This document shows positions 25,834 through 34,212 of a stretch of 64,000 nt of DNA, piece by piece; the first letter of the stretch is position 1; each line of letters begins with the position of its first letter. Under the pieces are notes generated by a model. It saw only the letters and a list, made by a program, of their open reading frames with translations. It had not been told where the DNA came from and ran no database searches. Location of the stretch: IMG/VR virus record IMGVR_UViG_3300035701_000008, positions 49,587 to 113,586 of that record, one strand, 5' to 3'. The position numbers and the translations under genes are program-made. Origin of the DNA: a virus.

Positions 25834-26127
25834 TTATTTGTTTTTAAATTGTTCAAACCATTTTTTAGCTTGTGTTACACTTCCATCACAATCAGCTATT
25901 ATATTTAACACTTCTTCCTCACTATAACTTCTTTCTTGTTGAGCTAACCAATAACCATCAATAAAACATTTTTTATACATCCATTTATTTTCAGAGTATG
26001 GTGCTATGTTTTCTTGAATATAATTTTCAGCAACTTCTTCAAGAGTTGTTTCTTGTTTAGATACTAAAGCAGTACTACCTCTTGTAACAGGGTTGTTTTG
26101 GTCTATTTGTTTAATTGTTTCTTTCAT
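25834..26127 (-). CDS. small hypothetical protein (ETLEE / YSEEEV type)
   Basis: ETTLEEVAE...FIDG.W..QQERSYSEEEV...WFEQFK. Confidence 0.6.
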   Translation of the reverse strand: MKETIKQIDQNNPVTRGSTALVSKQETTLEEVAENYIQENIAPYSENKWMYKKCFIDGYWLAQQERSYSEEEVLNIIADCDGSVTQAKKWFEQFKNK

Positions 26128-26206
26128 ATTATAATGTGATTTTATAGTTAAATTGTCAGGATAAACCTGATATATAGTATATAAATGATACTATAATGTG
26201 ATTTAT

Positions 26207-26237
26207 AAAAGAATAAGGGCTCCACAACAGAGCCCTT
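26207..26237 (-). terminator. intrinsic terminator
   Basis: AAGGGCTC-TGTTGTG-GAGCCCTT followed by ATTCTTTT. Confidence 0.75.
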
Positions 26238-26249
26238 CAATTCCCCTCC

Positions 26250-26396
26250 TTAATAACCCAACTGTTGTAGTTGGTCTATATTGGCTTCTACAATATACAC
26301 ACTTTGTGCTATTGTACATGTAAATGCAATTGACATTGCAAATGCTAATTTTCTGAAATGCCAGAAATCTACTGGACTTAAACTGATTGTTTTCAT
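26250..26396 (-). CDS. 48-aa small protein, not in ORF track
   Basis: MKTISLSPVDFWHFRKLAFAMSIAFTCTIAQSVYIVEANIDQLQQLGY; A-rich leader, lies between two terminators. Confidence 0.6.
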   Translation of the reverse strand: MKTISLSPVDFWHFRKLAFAMSIAFTCTIAQSVYIVEANIDQLQQLGY

Positions 26397-26426
26397 TGTT
26401 ATTTAGTTATTAAGGAATTACAAAAT

Positions 26427-26455
26427 AAAAAAGCCTCTAGGCAAGTAGAGGCTTT
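26427..26455 (-). terminator. intrinsic terminator closing the tmRNA/ncRNA unit
   Basis: AAAGCCTCTA-CTTGCC-TAGAGGCTTT followed by TTT. Confidence 0.85.
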
Positions 26456-26680
26456 AGTCGAGAGTTTATTCATTGCAACTCACAAGTGTTCCCTATCCAC
26501 AGAGACCATAGATTACAAGTTTAATGTGGATGTAATACCACGATTATTGAGATTGGCACTAGTAAAACCCAAACCATAAAGTACTCAACTCCTTCTCTGC
26601 GTGGAAAGGACTTAACATTCATGAGAAGCCAAATTTCTCTAATGTCTGTTGCTGTACATATTTGACATCAAGCAACTGCT
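26456..26680 (-). ncRNA. unidentified structured RNA downstream of tmRNA
   Basis: No long ORF; several stems and two possible pseudoknots (see findings). Confidence 0.5.
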
Positions 26681-26681
26681 G

Positions 26682-27003
26682 TGGAGGTGGGGAGAGTCGA
26701 ACTCCCGTCCAAACTACTTTCATTAATACAATTTATACAGCTTATGGGGTCAAGCTCAGCTCAACGATTCCACCACTCTGTTTAATCTTACTACAGAGAA
26801 GAATAATTAATTTAGGCTGCTACAGCAACTTCTTCTCTAATTAAAGAGAATACTCTGTTCATGTTAGCTACTACTTGTGCGTTATCTCCTAGAGACACTA
26901 CACGACTTGTGTTTTTGCCATTTAATCTATTCACCTTAGTTTACAGTTATCTCTCTGGCTGATTGTACTAACTATTGGTAACCTGTCAAATCCAGTCACC
27001 CCC
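26682..27003 (-). ncRNA. ssrA: tmRNA
   Basis: 5' GGGGGTGACTGGATTTGAC and 3' GGACGGGAGTTCGACTCTCCCCACCTCCA; acceptor stem with G3:U; helix 2 GTTAGTACAAT/ATTGTATTAAT and CAGC/GCTG; tag ORF 26919-26812 ends VAVAA-TAA. Confidence 0.95.
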
Positions 27004-27009
27004 ATTATG

Positions 27010-27156
27010 TTTTGTATCACTCTAGTGAGTTTAAAACTGACTACACTGATATGAAACATAATATGCATAATATAGGTAAGTTCAATGATACGCAGCACAT
27101 ACATTGACTATTTAAACTGATGTGTGGCGCTTATAGTCCCCAGTGATTATACAAAA
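27010..27156 (-). ncRNA. unidentified pseudoknot-containing RNA upstream of tmRNA
   Basis: Closing helix TTTTGTA..TCACT/AGTGATACAAAA, inner helix AGTTTAAA/TTTAAACT, and an H-type pseudoknot. Confidence 0.55.
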
Positions 27157-27229
27157 TTATAACCAAGTCACTTACTGTCCTTCAAGAGAGTATCCTAATA
27201 ATACTCCAAGTTATAATTTAATATCTCTG

Positions 27230-27237
27230 CAAATATA
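27230..27237 (-). promoter_or_regulatory. Bacteroidota sigma promoter (TATATTTG) for the ncRNA cluster
   Basis: Exact TAnnTTTG, with TTTG about 20 nt upstream. Confidence 0.75.
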
Positions 27238-27273
27238 ATTTACAGGGATAAATAAAACAAACAAAACAATCAA

Positions 27274-28668
27274 TTATATTTTAATCTCTTGTTCACCTAC
27301 ACCTTCTGTATAGCTGTACACTCTGTCTTCACAAGTCACCTTAATCTGTTTACCACCTGTAGCAAGACATAAATCTCTCAATTCATCATTAAATTCTATC
27401 AATGATACAGCATTCACCTTATAAGGGAATTCATCTGTATTGATTCTATCTTGACCATCGTTCAAAATTAATATCTCTGGTTTCTCATGTGATAGGTCAA
27501 TATCAAGATTACATAATCTACCACTAGATATCTCATCAGAAATACGTTCAACCATAGCAGCAACAGCTGTTTCTCCACCATTAGGTTCATTAGAGAATGT
27601 TTGCCAAAATTTAATTACATCCTCTTTGTTCTTAATGTGTTGAAATTCTAATTGGTCTGGATCATGAACAAAATAACTAAAGAACACCTCAGCTTCTCCC
27701 TTCATTACATACCTGAATCTGTCTATTAATATAGCATTCACCCAAGTTTGTTTACTATCCTCCCACATAGAACCAGAGAAATCTAGAATGATGATGATCT
27801 TTTGAATCTGTTCTTTTCTATCAACTGGTACATTAACTGTCAAATCTTTAGTTAAGAACTTAGTTCTGAAGTTAGGGAACATCTTTTGATAAAGATCCAT
27901 CATATGCATTTGAGCATAGTCTCTCATAATCATCTTAGAATACTCATCAGAATTAGCCACTATCTTTTCAGATATTTCCTTTTCCACTTTGAACTCACTA
28001 CCAAACTTACCAACAAGAGACAAATGGTTCATAATCTCCATCTTTTTATCTCTACTTCTATCATTTAGTTCTAGTTGTTCATTGATGTCTGGATCAGCAT
28101 ATATTTTTCTGTCAAAATCTAATCCTTTCTTGAGATCTAGCTCATCATCTTCTTGTCTTTCACCATCTGAGTCTTCATTCTTACTTGCTAATTTCAAATA
28201 AATAGCAACAGCTTGTTCAAGAGGTGTAAATCCAGGAATGTATTGCCCATAGATAGAATCAATCAATGGTTTCTTTCTATCATATTGTGCTCTATCTTTA
28301 TCAGTGAGTGAATCAACATCTAGATATTTATCATCCAGATAATTAGGTTCTTCGATCATCTTGAAATAACATGCACGTGCTAACTCTTTGATCATATCAA
28401 TACTCTCTTGACTCTTGACATATCTAAGTTTCTTCTTTATCTCAGTGGATGTTGGTGTAATGTAATTAACTGGATCTTTAACAAATAAGTTGCTATCATC
28501 ATCCTCATCAACCTCTTTAATAAATGAATATGTAGACCAGCTATTTTTAGACCAACTACCACCACCATACTTACTCTTCCAACTTCCTACACTCTTTTTG
28601 GGAGTGTAGGTTGGAGTATAATAATCACCATAGTAATCATCATCAATGTTATCAAATAATGTTCTCAT
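27274..28668 (-). CDS. vWA-domain protein, ViaA-like partner of a MoxR AAA
   Basis: MIDAS motif ILDFSGSM, PNGGET, ILILNDG, ATGG; coupled to the AAA gene. Confidence 0.85.
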   Translation of the reverse strand: MRTLFDNIDDDYYGDYYTPTYTPKKSVGSWKSKYGGGSWSKNSWSTYSFIKEVDEDDDSNLFVKDPVNYITPTSTEIKKKLRYVKSQESIDMIKELARACYFKMIEEPNYLDDKYLDVDSLTDKDRAQYDRKKPLIDSIYGQYIPGFTPLEQAVAIYLKLASKNEDSDGERQEDDELDLKKGLDFDRKIYADPDINEQLELNDRSRDKKMEIMNHLSLVGKFGSEFKVEKEISEKIVANSDEYSKMIMRDYAQMHMMDLYQKMFPNFRTKFLTKDLTVNVPVDRKEQIQKIIIILDFSGSMWEDSKQTWVNAILIDRFRYVMKGEAEVFFSYFVHDPDQLEFQHIKNKEDVIKFWQTFSNEPNGGETAVAAMVERISDEISSGRLCNLDIDLSHEKPEILILNDGQDRINTDEFPYKVNAVSLIEFNDELRDLCLATGGKQIKVTCEDRVYSYTEGVGEQEIKI

Positions 28669-29978
28669 TAGATAAATGCATTTATGGTTAGATTTTTATC
28701 AAATTTGGTTTTAGCTTGTGTAGCACTCTTAACTAATTGTGAATGTATGTGTGCTATATCATCACCTACAGTGAGGCCTTTGATGTCTGTAAGTTGTTTG
28801 TTAAGATCACCAATTGCATCTTTGTACATCTTCTCATCCTCTCTTGTTACCAATGGTAGGTGATTTAGTGTCTCAATACTATAAGTGATAGCTGCAGATA
28901 AGTCTCTAAACTTAATTGTAGCTTCGAACTTCTTAATCACTTCAGCAATCAATGCTGGTTTCTTAGCAAACTCTGCAATGAAACCTAATGAATCTGGACC
29001 ACATTGATCATACACTGAATAAGCTGTTACAGCTACACGTGGACTAATTGTAATACCATTCTTAGCATACTCTTGTAACAAGTATGGAATCACTGGATCT
29101 ACATTATCTACACCAAACTTACTTTCTAGTAATCTGTTATAGGATATTTCTGTGTAGTTATCCCATACAACATTCAATTCTAAAGGAAATCTCTCCATCA
29201 ATGCTTTTAATGACATATTCTTAGAGAATTCATCACGAGTTCTATTTGTACAACAAATGATGAACTTAGTAGCAATAGGAAATATCTGTGTACCATTTCT
29301 GAATACACCTGATGATAAAATATCCTTCAATTGCTCTAGAATAAAATCTGGTGCATCGAACAACTCTTCGAACACTACATATTCATGGTTCATGAAAGAA
29401 TTCTCTACAAGATATTCTATCTTACCTGTTTTCTCGAATGTTGGTATATCAAGACCACCAAACAATCTGTCTGTTGTCATACCTGTACCCATTGTAATAA
29501 TGTAAGGAGTGATTCCTTTAGATTGAAGAAAATCAAGTGTTATTTCTGATTTTCCATGACCCCCTGCGCCATATAAAACTACATTCTTACCTGTTTGAAA
29601 TCCTACATTAAGAATGTTAACTGTTTTGTCCATAAATACGAACTTCTCTGATACTGGATTTGCTTTTGCTGATCTCTTTGCTGTTGTTTTCATTTTTCTT
29701 TCTGTTATTAGGTTGTTGTTTAATTTAATTTGTTCTAAAATTTCTTCGATTATTATTTCTTCTTCTTTGAGAATACATTGTGATGGTCTAAATGTCCAAT
29801 CATTTATACGAAATTGTTGGTTAGATTCAATACTACTATTACATCCATCAGGAACATCTTGTCCCATGAAACGATCCATTTTATTGTAACTATTCCAATG
29901 TTTTGGTACATGAGCAATAGTATCCCAAAGACCATCTCTTTTGAATTCTTCCTCTGTCTTAAATCTATATTTACTCAT
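28668..29978 (-). CDS. MoxR/RavA-like AAA+ ATPase with N-terminal extension
   Basis: VLYGAGGHGKS, LFGGLDI, VFEELFD, CCTN, ALMERF, ISPR. Confidence 0.85.
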   Translation of the reverse strand: MSKYRFKTEEEFKRDGLWDTIAHVPKHWNSYNKMDRFMGQDVPDGCNSSIESNQQFRINDWTFRPSQCILKEEEIIIEEILEQIKLNNNLITERKMKTTAKRSAKANPVSEKFVFMDKTVNILNVGFQTGKNVVLYGAGGHGKSEITLDFLQSKGITPYIITMGTGMTTDRLFGGLDIPTFEKTGKIEYLVENSFMNHEYVVFEELFDAPDFILEQLKDILSSGVFRNGTQIFPIATKFIICCTNRTRDEFSKNMSLKALMERFPLELNVVWDNYTEISYNRLLESKFGVDNVDPVIPYLLQEYAKNGITISPRVAVTAYSVYDQCGPDSLGFIAEFAKKPALIAEVIKKFEATIKFRDLSAAITYSIETLNHLPLVTREDEKMYKDAIGDLNKQLTDIKGLTVGDDIAHIHSQLVKSATQAKTKFDKNLTINAFI

Positions 29979-29989
29979 AGCTTTTATAT

Positions 29990-30015
29990 AAAAAGAGAGC
30001 CATTACAGCTCTCTT
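29990..30015 (-). terminator. intrinsic terminator
   Basis: AAGAGAGC-TGTAATG-GCTCTCTT followed by TTT. Confidence 0.75.
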
Positions 30016-30020
30016 ATTAA

Positions 30021-30458
30021 TTAGTCTTCATCTTCTTCAATTCTTCTTCTGATGAATTCATCTAATGCATCTTTGATCTCTTTAGGAAGATCTTCTCCAT
30101 TGATAGTGGAAACATCATGACCCATAGATTTAATCTTATCTAATAGTTCACCAGCACCACCACCAATCTTAAGTTCTGCATATTGACGCATTGCATTTTC
30201 TTCCATTTCTTCTATCCTACTTTTAAGATAGAATCCTGCAAGGATAACCAATTGAGAATAACTATACTCATTCAATGCAGCTTCTACAAGCTTGCTTGTT
30301 TGACAGTCTAGTATTTTCTCATTCACTGTGTCCACTTTAAGATTAAAGATAATATCTTTGGTCTTATCGTTTAACTCATCTAAATAGGCTTGATTTACGC
30401 CTAAAGCTTTGTTGATCTTTGTTTCTTCGTGATCAAATGTAAAAATTGTTGCATTCAT
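30021..30458 (-). CDS. early hypothetical protein
   Basis: FDH......ALGV; leader TCCTTAATAAC. Confidence 0.65.
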   Translation of the reverse strand: MNATIFTFDHEETKINKALGVNQAYLDELNDKTKDIIFNLKVDTVNEKILDCQTSKLVEAALNEYSYSQLVILAGFYLKSRIEEMEENAMRQYAELKIGGGAGELLDKIKSMGHDVSTINGEDLPKEIKDALDEFIRRRIEEDED

Positions 30459-30622
30459 GTTATTAAGGATTTATTGTTCTATTGTTTGTCTTGTATTTAT
30501 TATCTTTTCTCTTATAATTCCTTTTCTGAAATTATATAACACTTCAATTATCAACCTTCTAGCTTTAATTGCTTTAAATCTATCTGTTGATCCTACCAAT
30601 GTACCTTTATACACCCTACGTC

Positions 30623-30853
30623 TCATATCAATTTAATAACAGCTAGTATTATATCAATTACTATGATTGCAGAAAAACAAAATACAAGAATCCTATTTGT
30701 TTTAGACAAATGTTCATTATGTTTTTCTAGCAGTTCTACTCTTAGTTCTTTTAGACTAATAAGTCTATCAGATGTTTCTAAGCATCTCTGTTGAGCTTCT
30801 ATCAATTTTGTTAGTTGATCGAATGTTTCTTCAATTCCTCTTTGTTTTTGCAT
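30623..30853 (-). CDS. coiled-coil protein with C-terminal TM segment
   Basis: Heptad pattern followed by a hydrophobic tail. Confidence 0.55.
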   Translation of the reverse strand: MQKQRGIEETFDQLTKLIEAQQRCLETSDRLISLKELRVELLEKHNEHLSKTNRILVFCFSAIIVIDIILAVIKLI

Positions 30854-31025
30854 ATTATTTTATATTAGTTTTTACTTATCATCATACCAATAAGAATTGG
30901 TAATACTAAAGGACTGAACACAAGACATACATAATGTCTAAACTCTAGATCATCTATATGCTTATAAGACTCAATAAAAATTCCTACCATAACTAAATAT
31001 GATAGGAATATATATAATGTGATTA

Positions 31026-31217
31026 TCATAATCCAATAAGATCATCAAAACAACTCTCTAACAAATCTGTTAGCTTTTGTCTCTCGTGTAACAATACATC
31101 TATTTGTTCTTCTATCTCATGGATGTTTGTGTCATCATGAGCATCTCTAAGGCTATCTAATGAATGTATTTCATTTTTGATAACTTGTAACCTCTGTTCA
31201 ATAATTTCTGTTTTCAT
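31026..31217 (-). CDS. small coiled-coil protein
   Basis: Helical hairpin pattern. Confidence 0.55.
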   Translation of the reverse strand: MKTEIIEQRLQVIKNEIHSLDSLRDAHDDTNIHEIEEQIDVLLHERQKLTDLLESCFDDLIGL

Positions 31218-31231
31218 TGTTATATTTGTTA

Positions 31232-31435
31232 TTAAGAATTAAAATTGTTATCAAGATCATTTCCAATTATAGCACTTGGTATCCAACCAAATGTCATCAT
31301 AAAGAATAACATTGCACCATGTGTCATGCATTGTTTGTACGTTACATCAGATAATAAATATCCAATAAGACCGAAAGACATCCATGTAAGGAGTAGTGAA
31401 GCTATTACAGCTAACATAATTTTTGTTGATTTCAT
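31232..31435 (-). CDS. small two-TM membrane protein
   Basis: Two hydrophobic segments and GWIP. Confidence 0.6.
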   Translation of the reverse strand: MKSTKIMLAVIASLLLTWMSFGLIGYLLSDVTYKQCMTHGAMLFFMMTFGWIPSAIIGNDLDNNFNS

Positions 31436-31451
31436 AATTATTAAGGATTTG

Positions 31452-31661
31452 TTATTTTATATAAATACTACAATGACTGAATTCTTGTTCTTTTATAATC
31501 CAGTCAACATCTATTACTGAACAATTATGAATTACACCTTTATGTGTAACATCAAAATTGTTATCTCCTTTAACTGGAAGTGCAGGTAATAGTATTTCTA
31601 ATTGATCTATTTCAGGAAATTCACCTCCCATATCTATTAAGAAGCATTTGATTAAATTCAT
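31452..31661 (-). CDS. hypothetical protein
   Basis: LPALPVKGD; leader CTCCTTAATAAC. Confidence 0.55.
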   Translation of the reverse strand: MNLIKCFLIDMGGEFPEIDQLEILLPALPVKGDNNFDVTHKGVIHNCSVIDVDWIIKEQEFSHCSIYIK

Positions 31662-31689
31662 TTTGTTTGTTATTAAGGAGTTTAATTAA

Positions 31690-32643: not shown

Positions 32644-33053
32644 AATACGTTGTTTAAAAATGACTACCTAATGCAGCATCAATTTGATTATTAATATGTC
32701 TTTGTTCCCAAATGGTAAGCTCATCATATGCTTTACCATAATACCTCTGTGCAAATTCTTCTTCCATAATATATATGTATTTGATTTGTGTTTTACACCT
32801 AAAACTTTATTATCTCTGTATCACTATTGAAAAGTTGGATACTTGACCATAATTTGTATATATGGAAAGAAACTGGTGTCCTCAACATCTTGGAAGGTTA
32901 TTGAGTTTTTTATGAGAGCTTGATTTCCTCTCTTGTGTTATGTTAGCCTAACAGAACCTCTTTCTCCACACCTAATCCTTGGATTATACAGTGGCTGGTT
33001 GTTAACACAATGTAAATGTGAAAGAATATTCTCTACATTGTGTACTAGTATTA

Positions 33054-33287
33054 TTAATCACACCAACTTCTAGAACAAGAAGGACATGATGTTATGTGTG
33101 AACCAGAAGACATTTTAAATGCATCATCCTCTCCATATCTATCAACTAACATTTCTCCTAGTGTTTCAAGTTTACCATATTTATCATCTCTAACCCAATT
33201 ATACATGTGATTACATGATTTATATGCGAATAGAGGAACTTTGTTGGTTTCACAATATATTCTCTGATTGTCGTAGTGTATATCCAT
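33054..33287 (-). CDS. small Cys-containing early protein
   Basis: C-terminal CPSC...WCD. Confidence 0.55.
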   Translation of the reverse strand: MDIHYDNQRIYCETNKVPLFAYKSCNHMYNWVRDDKYGKLETLGEMLVDRYGEDDAFKMSSGSHITSCPSCSRSWCD

Positions 33288-33441: not shown

Positions 33442-33668
33442 GAATGCTATATTTATTGCTTTGTTTATTGTTATTTGTGTTTGTTCTTGATTGATGTTTA
33501 TGCTAATGAGGTGTACGCTACAACATATATATACACCCAAAAAGTTTTTTTCTCCCTCGTAAAAAGTTTTATTACATATATATATAGGTATAAACTTTTC
33601 CACTAGGAAGAAATAAACTTTTTTCCACTCCTATATATATAGGAAGGATGAATATAGATTTATATACG

Positions 33669-34052: not shown

Positions 34053-34212
34053 AATTTCTGTTTTTTAATTGTTTAATGGGGGAGCACCCCGCTCACCCAA
34101 ACATAGGTGGGGTAGTTGATTGGAAGTGGTCTCACATCCCACATACACAATGGGTTTCCAAATTTTGAAAAAAAATTTTAAAAAAGTTTTGGCTGGTATG
34201 TATTTTATGCAT

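Follow-up and report, generated by a model that had tools for sequence, protein, structure and literature searches.

An 11-nt leader box directly precedes five start codons in the early region of a crAss-like phage, and its only inverted copy, the anti-box, ends the last gene of the same block, where in the predicted mRNA it forms the linker between two helices. We tentatively favor, at somewhat under an even chance, the reading that the complementarity of box and anti-box works as RNA, at the least as a cis fold-back lock upon the small mRNA that carries both partners, and possibly in trans upon the leaders of other genes; comparative sequence and modelled folds point this way. Within this RNA reading the cis lock is the more secure part. 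What is directly established are the sequences, the way they are conserved and placed, and the folds predicted for them; from these we infer pairing within the cell and, above all, any action in trans.

The phage and its leftward gene block

The window (the whole stretch of 64,000 nucleotides that was analysed; positions below are window positions unless the genome is named, with the strand given as + or −) is the right-hand 64 kb of a complete viral genome of 113,586 bp with direct terminal repeats and a GC content of about 32%. The major capsid protein matched the Crassvirus capsid family (Crass_capsid), the portal is P22-like, and a 4726-aa ORF outside the window (genome G000:9000-23177, +) contains a single DFDxD motif, which, judged by its sequence, is the hallmark of a crAss-type virion RNA polymerase. 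The bacterial RecA proteins nearest to that of the phage belong to Flavobacteriales and other Bacteroidota (~47% identity); the capsid, the DFDxD ORF and the RecA affinities together indicate an uncultured crAss-like phage with a Bacteroidota host. The RecA encoded by a 2.8-kb contig binned as “Aquiluna sp.” (L129) is 73% identical to the phage RecA, and this contig is probably a mis-binned piece of a related phage. Searching for isolate relatives by nucleotide sequence matched just the tmRNA region of Flavobacterium and Cellulophaga phages, and a protein search with the ATPase described below against a phage collection found no cultured relative. A T7-type polymerase was not detected in the genome, in a search whose control gave no signal and which does not establish its absence; sigma region 2 and bS21 were also not detected in the genome, and sigma region 4 gave weak matches only.

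From position 1 to ~34,050 the genes lie on the minus strand, without Shine-Dalgarno sequences and with A-rich leaders, and host-type TAnnTTTG boxes are few (examples at 34105, 27237 and 23127). This leftward block opens with ~11 kb of small ORFs of no assigned function, a MoxR-like ATPase among them; replication genes come next (a DnaB-like helicase, a primase-like protein and RecA).

Copies of the leader box in the genome

The preliminary description of this DNA had listed five leader copies of the box and one inverted copy, and all six were found where it had placed them. The five sense copies are on the minus strand, 0-10 nt before start codons, and are exact or carry one mismatch. The first, CUCCUUAAUAAC (31669..31680, −), lies 7 nt before ATG 31661; here TCCTTAATAAC at 31679-31669, together with C31680, is complementary at 12 of 12 positions to GTTATTAAGGAG of the anti-box, and among all leaders this one gives the best predicted duplex with the anti-box (-19.9 kcal/mol). 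The variant UCCUUAAUAAU (TCCTTAATAAT as DNA; 31437..31447, −) ends 1 nt before ATG 31435, the start of a gene for a 67-aa membrane protein, and the variant UUCUUAAUAAC (TTCTTAATAAC; 31228..31238, −) lies 10 nt before ATG 31217 and takes in the stop codon of the upstream gene. An exact TCCTTAATAAC (30459..30469, −) abuts ATG 30458 of a 145-aa ORF; the last copy, UCCUUAAUAAC in the RNA (TCCTTAATAAC; 26406..26416, −), stands 9 nt before ATG 26396 of the 48-aa ORF that ends in the anti-box. The boxes at 31447 and 31238 sit in gaps of 14-16 nt, with no terminator before 30015; boxes in such terminator-free operon gaps of 12-16 nt are necessarily transcribed within polycistronic RNA.

A decayed box, AACCUAAUAAC (29704..29714, −), was found inside the ORF of the MoxR-like AAA ATPase (28668-29978, −), 10 nt before an in-frame ATG (29693-29691). 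This ORF is a fusion of two cistrons. In two relatives (L029 and L032) the cistrons are separate with an exact box at their junction; in a third (L001) they form one ORF that preserves the box in frame, as Asn-Ser-Leu-Ile-Thr, ahead of an in-frame ATG; in the present genome, too, they are fused, but the junction box has decayed to AACCTAATAAC.

Four exact copies in the window compare with 0.14 expected, a number reached in 0 of 100 shuffles, and the 113,586-bp genome holds no exact copy beyond these four. The two one-mismatch copies share the same 5.4-kb stretch with the exact ones, and genome-wide all sites with no more than one mismatch fall at 26247-31679, except for one inside a gene outside the window. 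Allowing one mismatch over the whole window gave 6 sites against 2.55 expected, which 7 of 100 shuffles equalled, so this count alone is not significant; it is by their clustering, orientation and placement before start codons that the boxes are non-random.

Pairing of the box with 16S rRNA was considered and rejected. For three Flavobacteriia 16S sequences the longest perfect complement was 7 nt and the best duplex reached -7.7 to -9.0 kcal/mol, which makes direct ribosome tethering unlikely; the box has the same sense as the anti-Shine-Dalgarno sequence and is not its complement.

The leader box in related phages

A search with the neighboring ATPase fetched 53 viral loci, about 33 of which carry the box in 3-10 copies per locus of 5-13 kb. 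Copies with one mismatch or less number 193 in the sense and 39 in the antisense orientation over these relatives, the antisense ones being mostly the single inverted site that is conserved. Exact copies in five relatives with complete or near-complete genomes fall solely in the homologous region (~5-13 kb); a single exact inverted copy is present in each of four of these genomes, and in the fifth (G005) the inverted copy has one mismatch.

An ORF start lies within 13 nt of the box in 165 of 184 distinct contexts, with a spacing of 0-2 nt to the ATG in 49, of 6-13 nt in 116 and of 3-5 nt never. Within one orthologous gene (MKSTKIM..., the gene at ATG 31435 in this genome) the spacing is 1, 2, 6, 7 or 9 nt, and this variation argues that the gap at 3-5 nt is not mere shared ancestry. 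The conserved core is WAAW-TCCTTAATAAC-AA (~15 nt), beyond which upstream sequence is not conserved, and the base after the box is A in 72%. A terminator hairpin directly precedes 22% of boxes, compared with 10% of other ORF starts.

One locus with a homologous ATPase (L028) belongs to a different phage of higher GC content and has 10 sense copies of another repeat, GCTATACAC (L028:446-12739), followed in five of the 10 by CACGGACTTAC and AGATAATATA to form a promoter-like tripartite repeat. This locus was considered as a variant-box clade for covariation and set aside, as its repeat is unrelated and the peptide gene is absent; the outgroup loci L041 and L126, considered for the same use, have no box at all.

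The 48-aa membrane-peptide gene

The last gene of the box-bearing block is a 48-aa ORF (26250..26396, −) for a conserved small hydrophobic peptide. A search by peptide alignment found 57 loci, reduced to 45 distinct gene contexts (43 in the clade and 2 outgroup), over which the peptide length is constant and the substitutions are protein-like; by these sequence patterns the ORF is a real gene. Peptide identity in the clade is 65-83%. AlphaFold2 predicted one helix over residues 8-45 (pLDDT 92.7), and the core LAFAMSIAFTCTIAQSVYIV is hydrophobic enough to span a membrane (mean Kyte-Doolittle value of ~1.75 for L17-V36, calculated by hand), so that the product, as modelled, probably crosses the membrane once. 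It matched no family in Pfam or PHROG, and a protein atlas search gave no usable match.

The gene has the box in its own leader in 43 of 44 relatives; the remaining one (L076) has lost the leader box and keeps the anti-box. In two outgroup lineages (L041/L128 and L126/L127) the peptide is kept, and box, anti-box, hairpin and terminator are all absent. The opposite strand over 26100-26450 has no host-type TAnnTTTG promoter, and no Rfam antisense family scored above threshold. Two promoter candidates were dropped: a TATTTTG between the upstream terminator and the box misses TAnnTTTG by one base and lacks conservation, and TTTTAGGTGTA, considered as a general promoter, is not repeated.

The small mRNA belongs to an island of RNA genes, together with a full-length tmRNA (26679-27003, −; Rfam RF00023, 83.8 bits; ARAGORN tag ANMNRVFSLIREEVAVAA) and a ~220-nt ORF-free stretch (26456-26680, −) between the tmRNA and the terminator at 26455-26430, for which no Rfam family came near threshold. 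Nucleotide similarity (78%) to Cellulophaga phages and to the FpV4 group of Flavobacterium phages is confined to the tmRNA; a 57-aa ORF (27104..26931) overlapping it is probably spurious.

The inverted copy at the end of the small mRNA

The inverted copy is confirmed at 26247-26257 (+ strand), where it reads GTTATTAAGGA(G) in the mRNA sense and covers the TAA stop codon (26252-26250), and, as first described, 8 nt separate it from the terminator stem, which begins at 26237. In the mRNA the anti-box is GUUAUUAAGGAG (26246..26257, −), the reverse complement of the leader box and the Gly-Tyr-stop end of the 48-aa ORF. It is the single inverted copy in the 113.6-kb genome, and it belongs to one transcription unit with the forward box at 26406..26416. 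A terminator of the upstream RNA-gene unit (26430..26455, −) ends 14 nt before that box.

The proposed regulation had been made to depend upon the inverted copy being conserved, and the anti-box is kept in 44 of 44 distinct 3′ ends. It changes in two ways only, with TAG for TAA in ~5 sequences and GGG for GGA in ~4, and both changes preserve pairing with U. The matching change in the forward box, T4 to C, occurs in 0 of 165 forward copies; since it is seen in the inverted copy alone, the constraint upon that copy differs from the constraint upon the forward ones, and this argues against its being simply one more copy of the same DNA signal. All 29 sequences scored use GGT for Gly47 and TAT for Tyr48, in contrast to the synonymous sites of Tyr12, Phe, Ile4, Glu37 and Ala18, which vary freely; the non-coding anti-box bases GGRG are invariant, with variation in the adjoining spacer and leader bases. 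Eight of the 11 anti-box bases are coding, and codon bias and low divergence could explain part of this constancy.

Twelve terminator-proximal tracts were scanned for complementarity to gene leaders, and the anti-box tract alone exceeded all 100 shuffles. Four further leaders in this genome match the anti-box over 10-12 nt. Predicted duplexes of the linker with box-bearing leaders were at -15 to -20 kcal/mol, compared with a median of -7 for all leaders, and the leaders of some spurious ORFs give similar scores. Variants of anti-box G11 and leader C1 coincide in 2 loci against 0.8 expected, not a significant excess.

Other uses of the inverted copy were considered and rejected. The AAGGAGG within it, taken as a Shine-Dalgarno sequence, has 9 occurrences in the genome, mostly within genes, and the 30-codon TTG frame that follows it is not conserved in relatives. 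Site-specific inversion between the two boxes was rejected because the direct copies elsewhere would lead to deletions, and a palindromic repressor site because the box is non-palindromic and strictly oriented.

Predicted structure of the small mRNA

The anti-box is a single-stranded linker placed exactly between a hairpin internal to the ORF and the extended terminator. The hairpin, CCAACU-ACAAC-AGUUGG (26258..26274, −), occupies codons 41-47 directly 5′ of the anti-box; pairing holds in 99.6% of its alignment cells, two of its pairs have four G-U variants apiece, and one change, A-U to G-C, is compensatory. A second hairpin upstream, UAUAUUG...CAAUAUA (26277..26297, −), also inside the ORF, has 97.4% of cells paired and a U-G variant in 13 sequences. 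Synonymous diversity all but vanishes over the last third of the ORF; it is low at codons 33-41, which are nearly fixed (29 sequences scored). On the 3′ side is the intrinsic terminator with its U-tail (26205..26245, −), in which GGAAU pairs with AUUCU as an extended lower stem; some relatives have an alternative lower stem, GCAA with UUGU.

When the full small mRNA was folded, both the minimum free energy (MFE) and centroid structures paired the leader box with the anti-box over 11 bp (-59.9 kcal/mol, z = -4.4), and this predicted helix encloses the entire 48-codon ORF. The covariation alignment held 44 distinct sequences and three helices, namely box/anti-box and the two hairpins. Over these, 98.7% of cells were paired, the one-sided changes were all to G-U, and there was one double-sided change. 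Covariation in relatives had been suggested as a check of the RNA interpretation and proved not significant: 102 of 500 shuffles did equally well in double-sided changes, so that what is seen is conservation, not statistical covariation, and the reason is that both pairing partners are nearly invariant. The earlier suggestion that the RNA end acts upon its own leader in cis finds support in the predicted MFE fold, which pairs the anti-box with that leader, but not in the covariation.

Proposed pairing of box and anti-box as RNA

In the reading that we place first, the leader box UCCUUAAUAAC and its one anti-box would act upon each other as RNA. Between the ORF-internal hairpin and the terminator the anti-box would stay single-stranded; in the full-length small mRNA it would pair with the message's own 5′ leader box, closing the message 5′ to 3′ with a helix that covers -10 to -20 before the start codon, and a ribosome halting at the UAA within the anti-box could open this lock. 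The same exposed 12-mer may also pair with the identical box that lies 0-13 nt before other starts, four in this genome and up to about nine in relatives, and in a host without Shine-Dalgarno pairing such a seed-box duplex might block 30S loading. A further extension, which we consider rather doubtful, is that early timing is wholly a matter of RNA, the exposed 12-nt seed of the last early transcript shutting off up to ~10 early cistrons while locking its own message.

The RNA reading explains why the inverted copy is unique, why it is placed exactly between helices, why its variation is confined to wobble pairs, why silent sites are frozen, and why box and anti-box are lost jointly in the outgroups. 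Two features fit it less well. An identical 11-mer in the same register at all targets is more typical of a protein-read signal than of a small-RNA regulon, and the avoidance of 3-5 nt would follow from a transcription start immediately downstream of the box but not from RNA pairing. It was by weighing these features that RNA pairing was ranked first, a promoter second, an RNA operator read by protein third and coincidence last.

A promoter, an operator or coincidence

A possible explanation, to which we give clearly less weight than to RNA pairing, is that the box is a compact early promoter acting as DNA, read either by the virion polymerase or, with the help of a phage factor, by that of the host. 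Transcripts would begin at the box or immediately downstream of it and would be leaderless or have a very short leader. Where the early block ends, the inverted copy would drive convergent antisense transcription, either making an antisense RNA to the peptide gene, as in type I toxin-antitoxin pairs, or insulating the next block. The presence of a crAss-type virion polymerase makes an early promoter plausible, and in the crAss-like phage phi14:2 the virion polymerase transcribes the early genes, for which no early promoter motif was found (bioRxiv 10.1101/2020.03.07.982082). Here, too, the phage is crAss-like by its Crass_capsid major capsid protein and its 4726-aa DFDxD ORF. The motif lacks palindromic symmetry, has a strict orientation and occurs in one region alone, which adjoins the divergent start of the leftward block. 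A conserved ~15 nt with nothing conserved upstream, the A that mostly follows the box, and its excess behind terminators all suit a promoter, which would likewise account for identical boxes in the same register, and a spacing of 0-2 or 6-13 nt but never 3-5 nt suits the constraints upon leaderless or short-leader mRNA. The failure to detect a T7-type polymerase or sigma region 2 counts against it, though it has no bearing on a virion polymerase.

It is the inverted copy that fits a promoter poorly. It lacks the flanks of the forward copies, having CCCC upstream and CC downstream, so that an antisense transcript would begin on a pyrimidine; it tolerates the T4-to-C change that no forward copy shows; no convincing terminator exists for the antisense transcript; and only chance would explain why it fills the linker between two RNA helices so exactly. 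The box also stands before each of three consecutive genes of ~65 aa, which likewise counts against a promoter. A DNA site for a phage factor with one inverted copy had been the alternative offered in the preliminary description; with the giant DFDxD polymerase and the 3-5 nt avoidance this idea has become more specific and more plausible, but the differing flanks of the inverted copy count against it.

Less probable still, and in our judgment unlikely, is that the box is an RNA operator at the site of translation initiation, read by a phage or host protein that would be a RegA-like, class-specific repressor or activator of the early cistrons. The anti-box would then act in cis only, sequestering the signal upon the membrane-peptide mRNA. 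The tight tie of the box to start codons, its identity and constant register at every site, its marking of cistron junctions that fused later, and the appearance of the cis helix as the predicted MFE structure are all as such an operator would have them. Retention of the anti-box in L076 after the loss of its own leader box is not, the complementarity of the box to Flavobacteriia 16S rRNA is no more than 7 nt, no candidate RNA-binding protein was identified, and no RegA homologue was detected, in a search whose control gave no signal and which leaves absence unestablished.

Very improbable is an inverted copy without function, in which a Gly-Tyr-stop coding end plus G-rich spacer would match the box by chance and the clade would have inherited this match. 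In its favor, 8 of the 11 bases code, the 48-aa gene prefers GGT and TAT at other sites as well, and the clade is shallow (65-83% peptide identity). Against it, the chance that an inverted 11-mer without mismatch falls less than 200 nt from any of the five forward copies is about 7 in 10,000 (an estimate from base composition), the non-coding GGRG is invariant amid varying neighbors, and the outgroups diverge exactly at the anti-box (GGTTACTAA-ACTT and GGATATTAG-GAGA).

Relation to known regulatory systems

Messenger RNAs for small hydrophobic peptides are known to be locked through 5′-3′ pairing (PMC5416894). The small mRNA resembles hok/sok of plasmid R1 and aapA1/IsoA1 of Helicobacter pylori in having a short hydrophobic peptide gene whose 3′ end pairs with its 5′ leader and hides a translation signal, here by prediction. 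It differs from them in that no antisense antitoxin RNA was found, a toxin role being putative, and in that it lies in the early region of a lytic-type phage with the same box before several other genes; given a host without Shine-Dalgarno pairing, the element hidden here would be the phage-specific box.

Regulatory RNAs derived from mRNA 3′ ends and sharing the terminator of the mRNA include CpxQ, SroC and DapZ of enterobacteria. The likeness is in a seed at the end of an mRNA, single-stranded between a hairpin and the intrinsic terminator and complementary to other initiation regions; in the phage, unlike these, the seed overlaps a stop codon, all targets are one identical 11-mer, and neither a processing site nor an internal promoter is known. 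Bacteroidota are not known to have an Hfq-type chaperone. Phage antisense RNAs internal to an operon include the c4 RNA of P1 and P7 and the CI RNA of P4. These RNAs of temperate elements are processed out of the 5′ portion of a transcript and control immunity or just one anti-repressor operon. As with these, the RNA lies in the same transcription unit as short, repeated, perfectly complementary boxes near ribosome-loading sites; here, in contrast, up to ~10 cistrons, a 3′-end element and a crAss-like phage are involved.

The RegA protein of T4 binds loose AU-rich sites and represses the translation of early mRNA. It is similar in that a class of early genes is controlled post-transcriptionally through a site overlapping the initiation region, though no homologue was detected here. 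With the short promoters of phage RNA polymerases, and with the phi14:2 virion polymerase, the box shares a compact oriented motif, one temporal block and a DFDxD polymerase; for phi14:2, though, no early promoter motif was found, and the box of the present phage abuts start codons and has one conserved inverted copy placed as an RNA linker. A search of the literature for the motif or for Flavobacterium phage promoters found nothing relevant.

Gene control in crAss-like phages is largely unknown, and in the one model that has been studied an early promoter motif was not found. An uncultured clade with more than 40 distinct sequences now offers a sharply defined 11-nt element at early starts together with a matched antisense copy. 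If the element works as RNA, it would be a compact phage antisense regulon with a fold-back-locked peptide mRNA in Bacteroidota, where RNA regulators and the control of Shine-Dalgarno-free translation are poorly understood; were action in trans true, the many-target antisense regulon would be suited to a host without a Shine-Dalgarno step. If it works as DNA, it would be a candidate recognition sequence of a crAss-type virion RNA polymerase, whose promoter specificity is still an open question.

Other elements of the leftward block

The gene that opens the leftward block (34052) is preceded by a host-type TATGTTTG box and, after this box, a G/C-rich hairpin, GGGTGAGCGGGGTGCTCCCCC (34075-34112, −); both are conserved in one complete or near-complete relative (G003), and the region could be a structured promoter or leader. 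The leader of this same gene (34055-34073, −) is a perfect complement of a 19-nt tract (2737-2757, −) that immediately precedes the terminator of a small Cys-rich gene. The tract, which is of low-complexity sequence, persists in G003 and G004 and has diverged further in G005; the leader of G003 retains ~13 nt of the complement, with a bulge. Within the early block are two long non-coding gaps (33500-33660 and 32770-33055, both −) in which GGAAAAAAGTTTAT occurs twice, along with runs of TATATATATA and a long hairpin (~33000-33045). In the 120-nt gap between the terminator of the small mRNA and ATG 26127, AATCACATTATA occurs twice (26130-26205, −); its first copy is kept in four relatives (L010, L075, L092 and L107), and the next block probably has its promoter region here.
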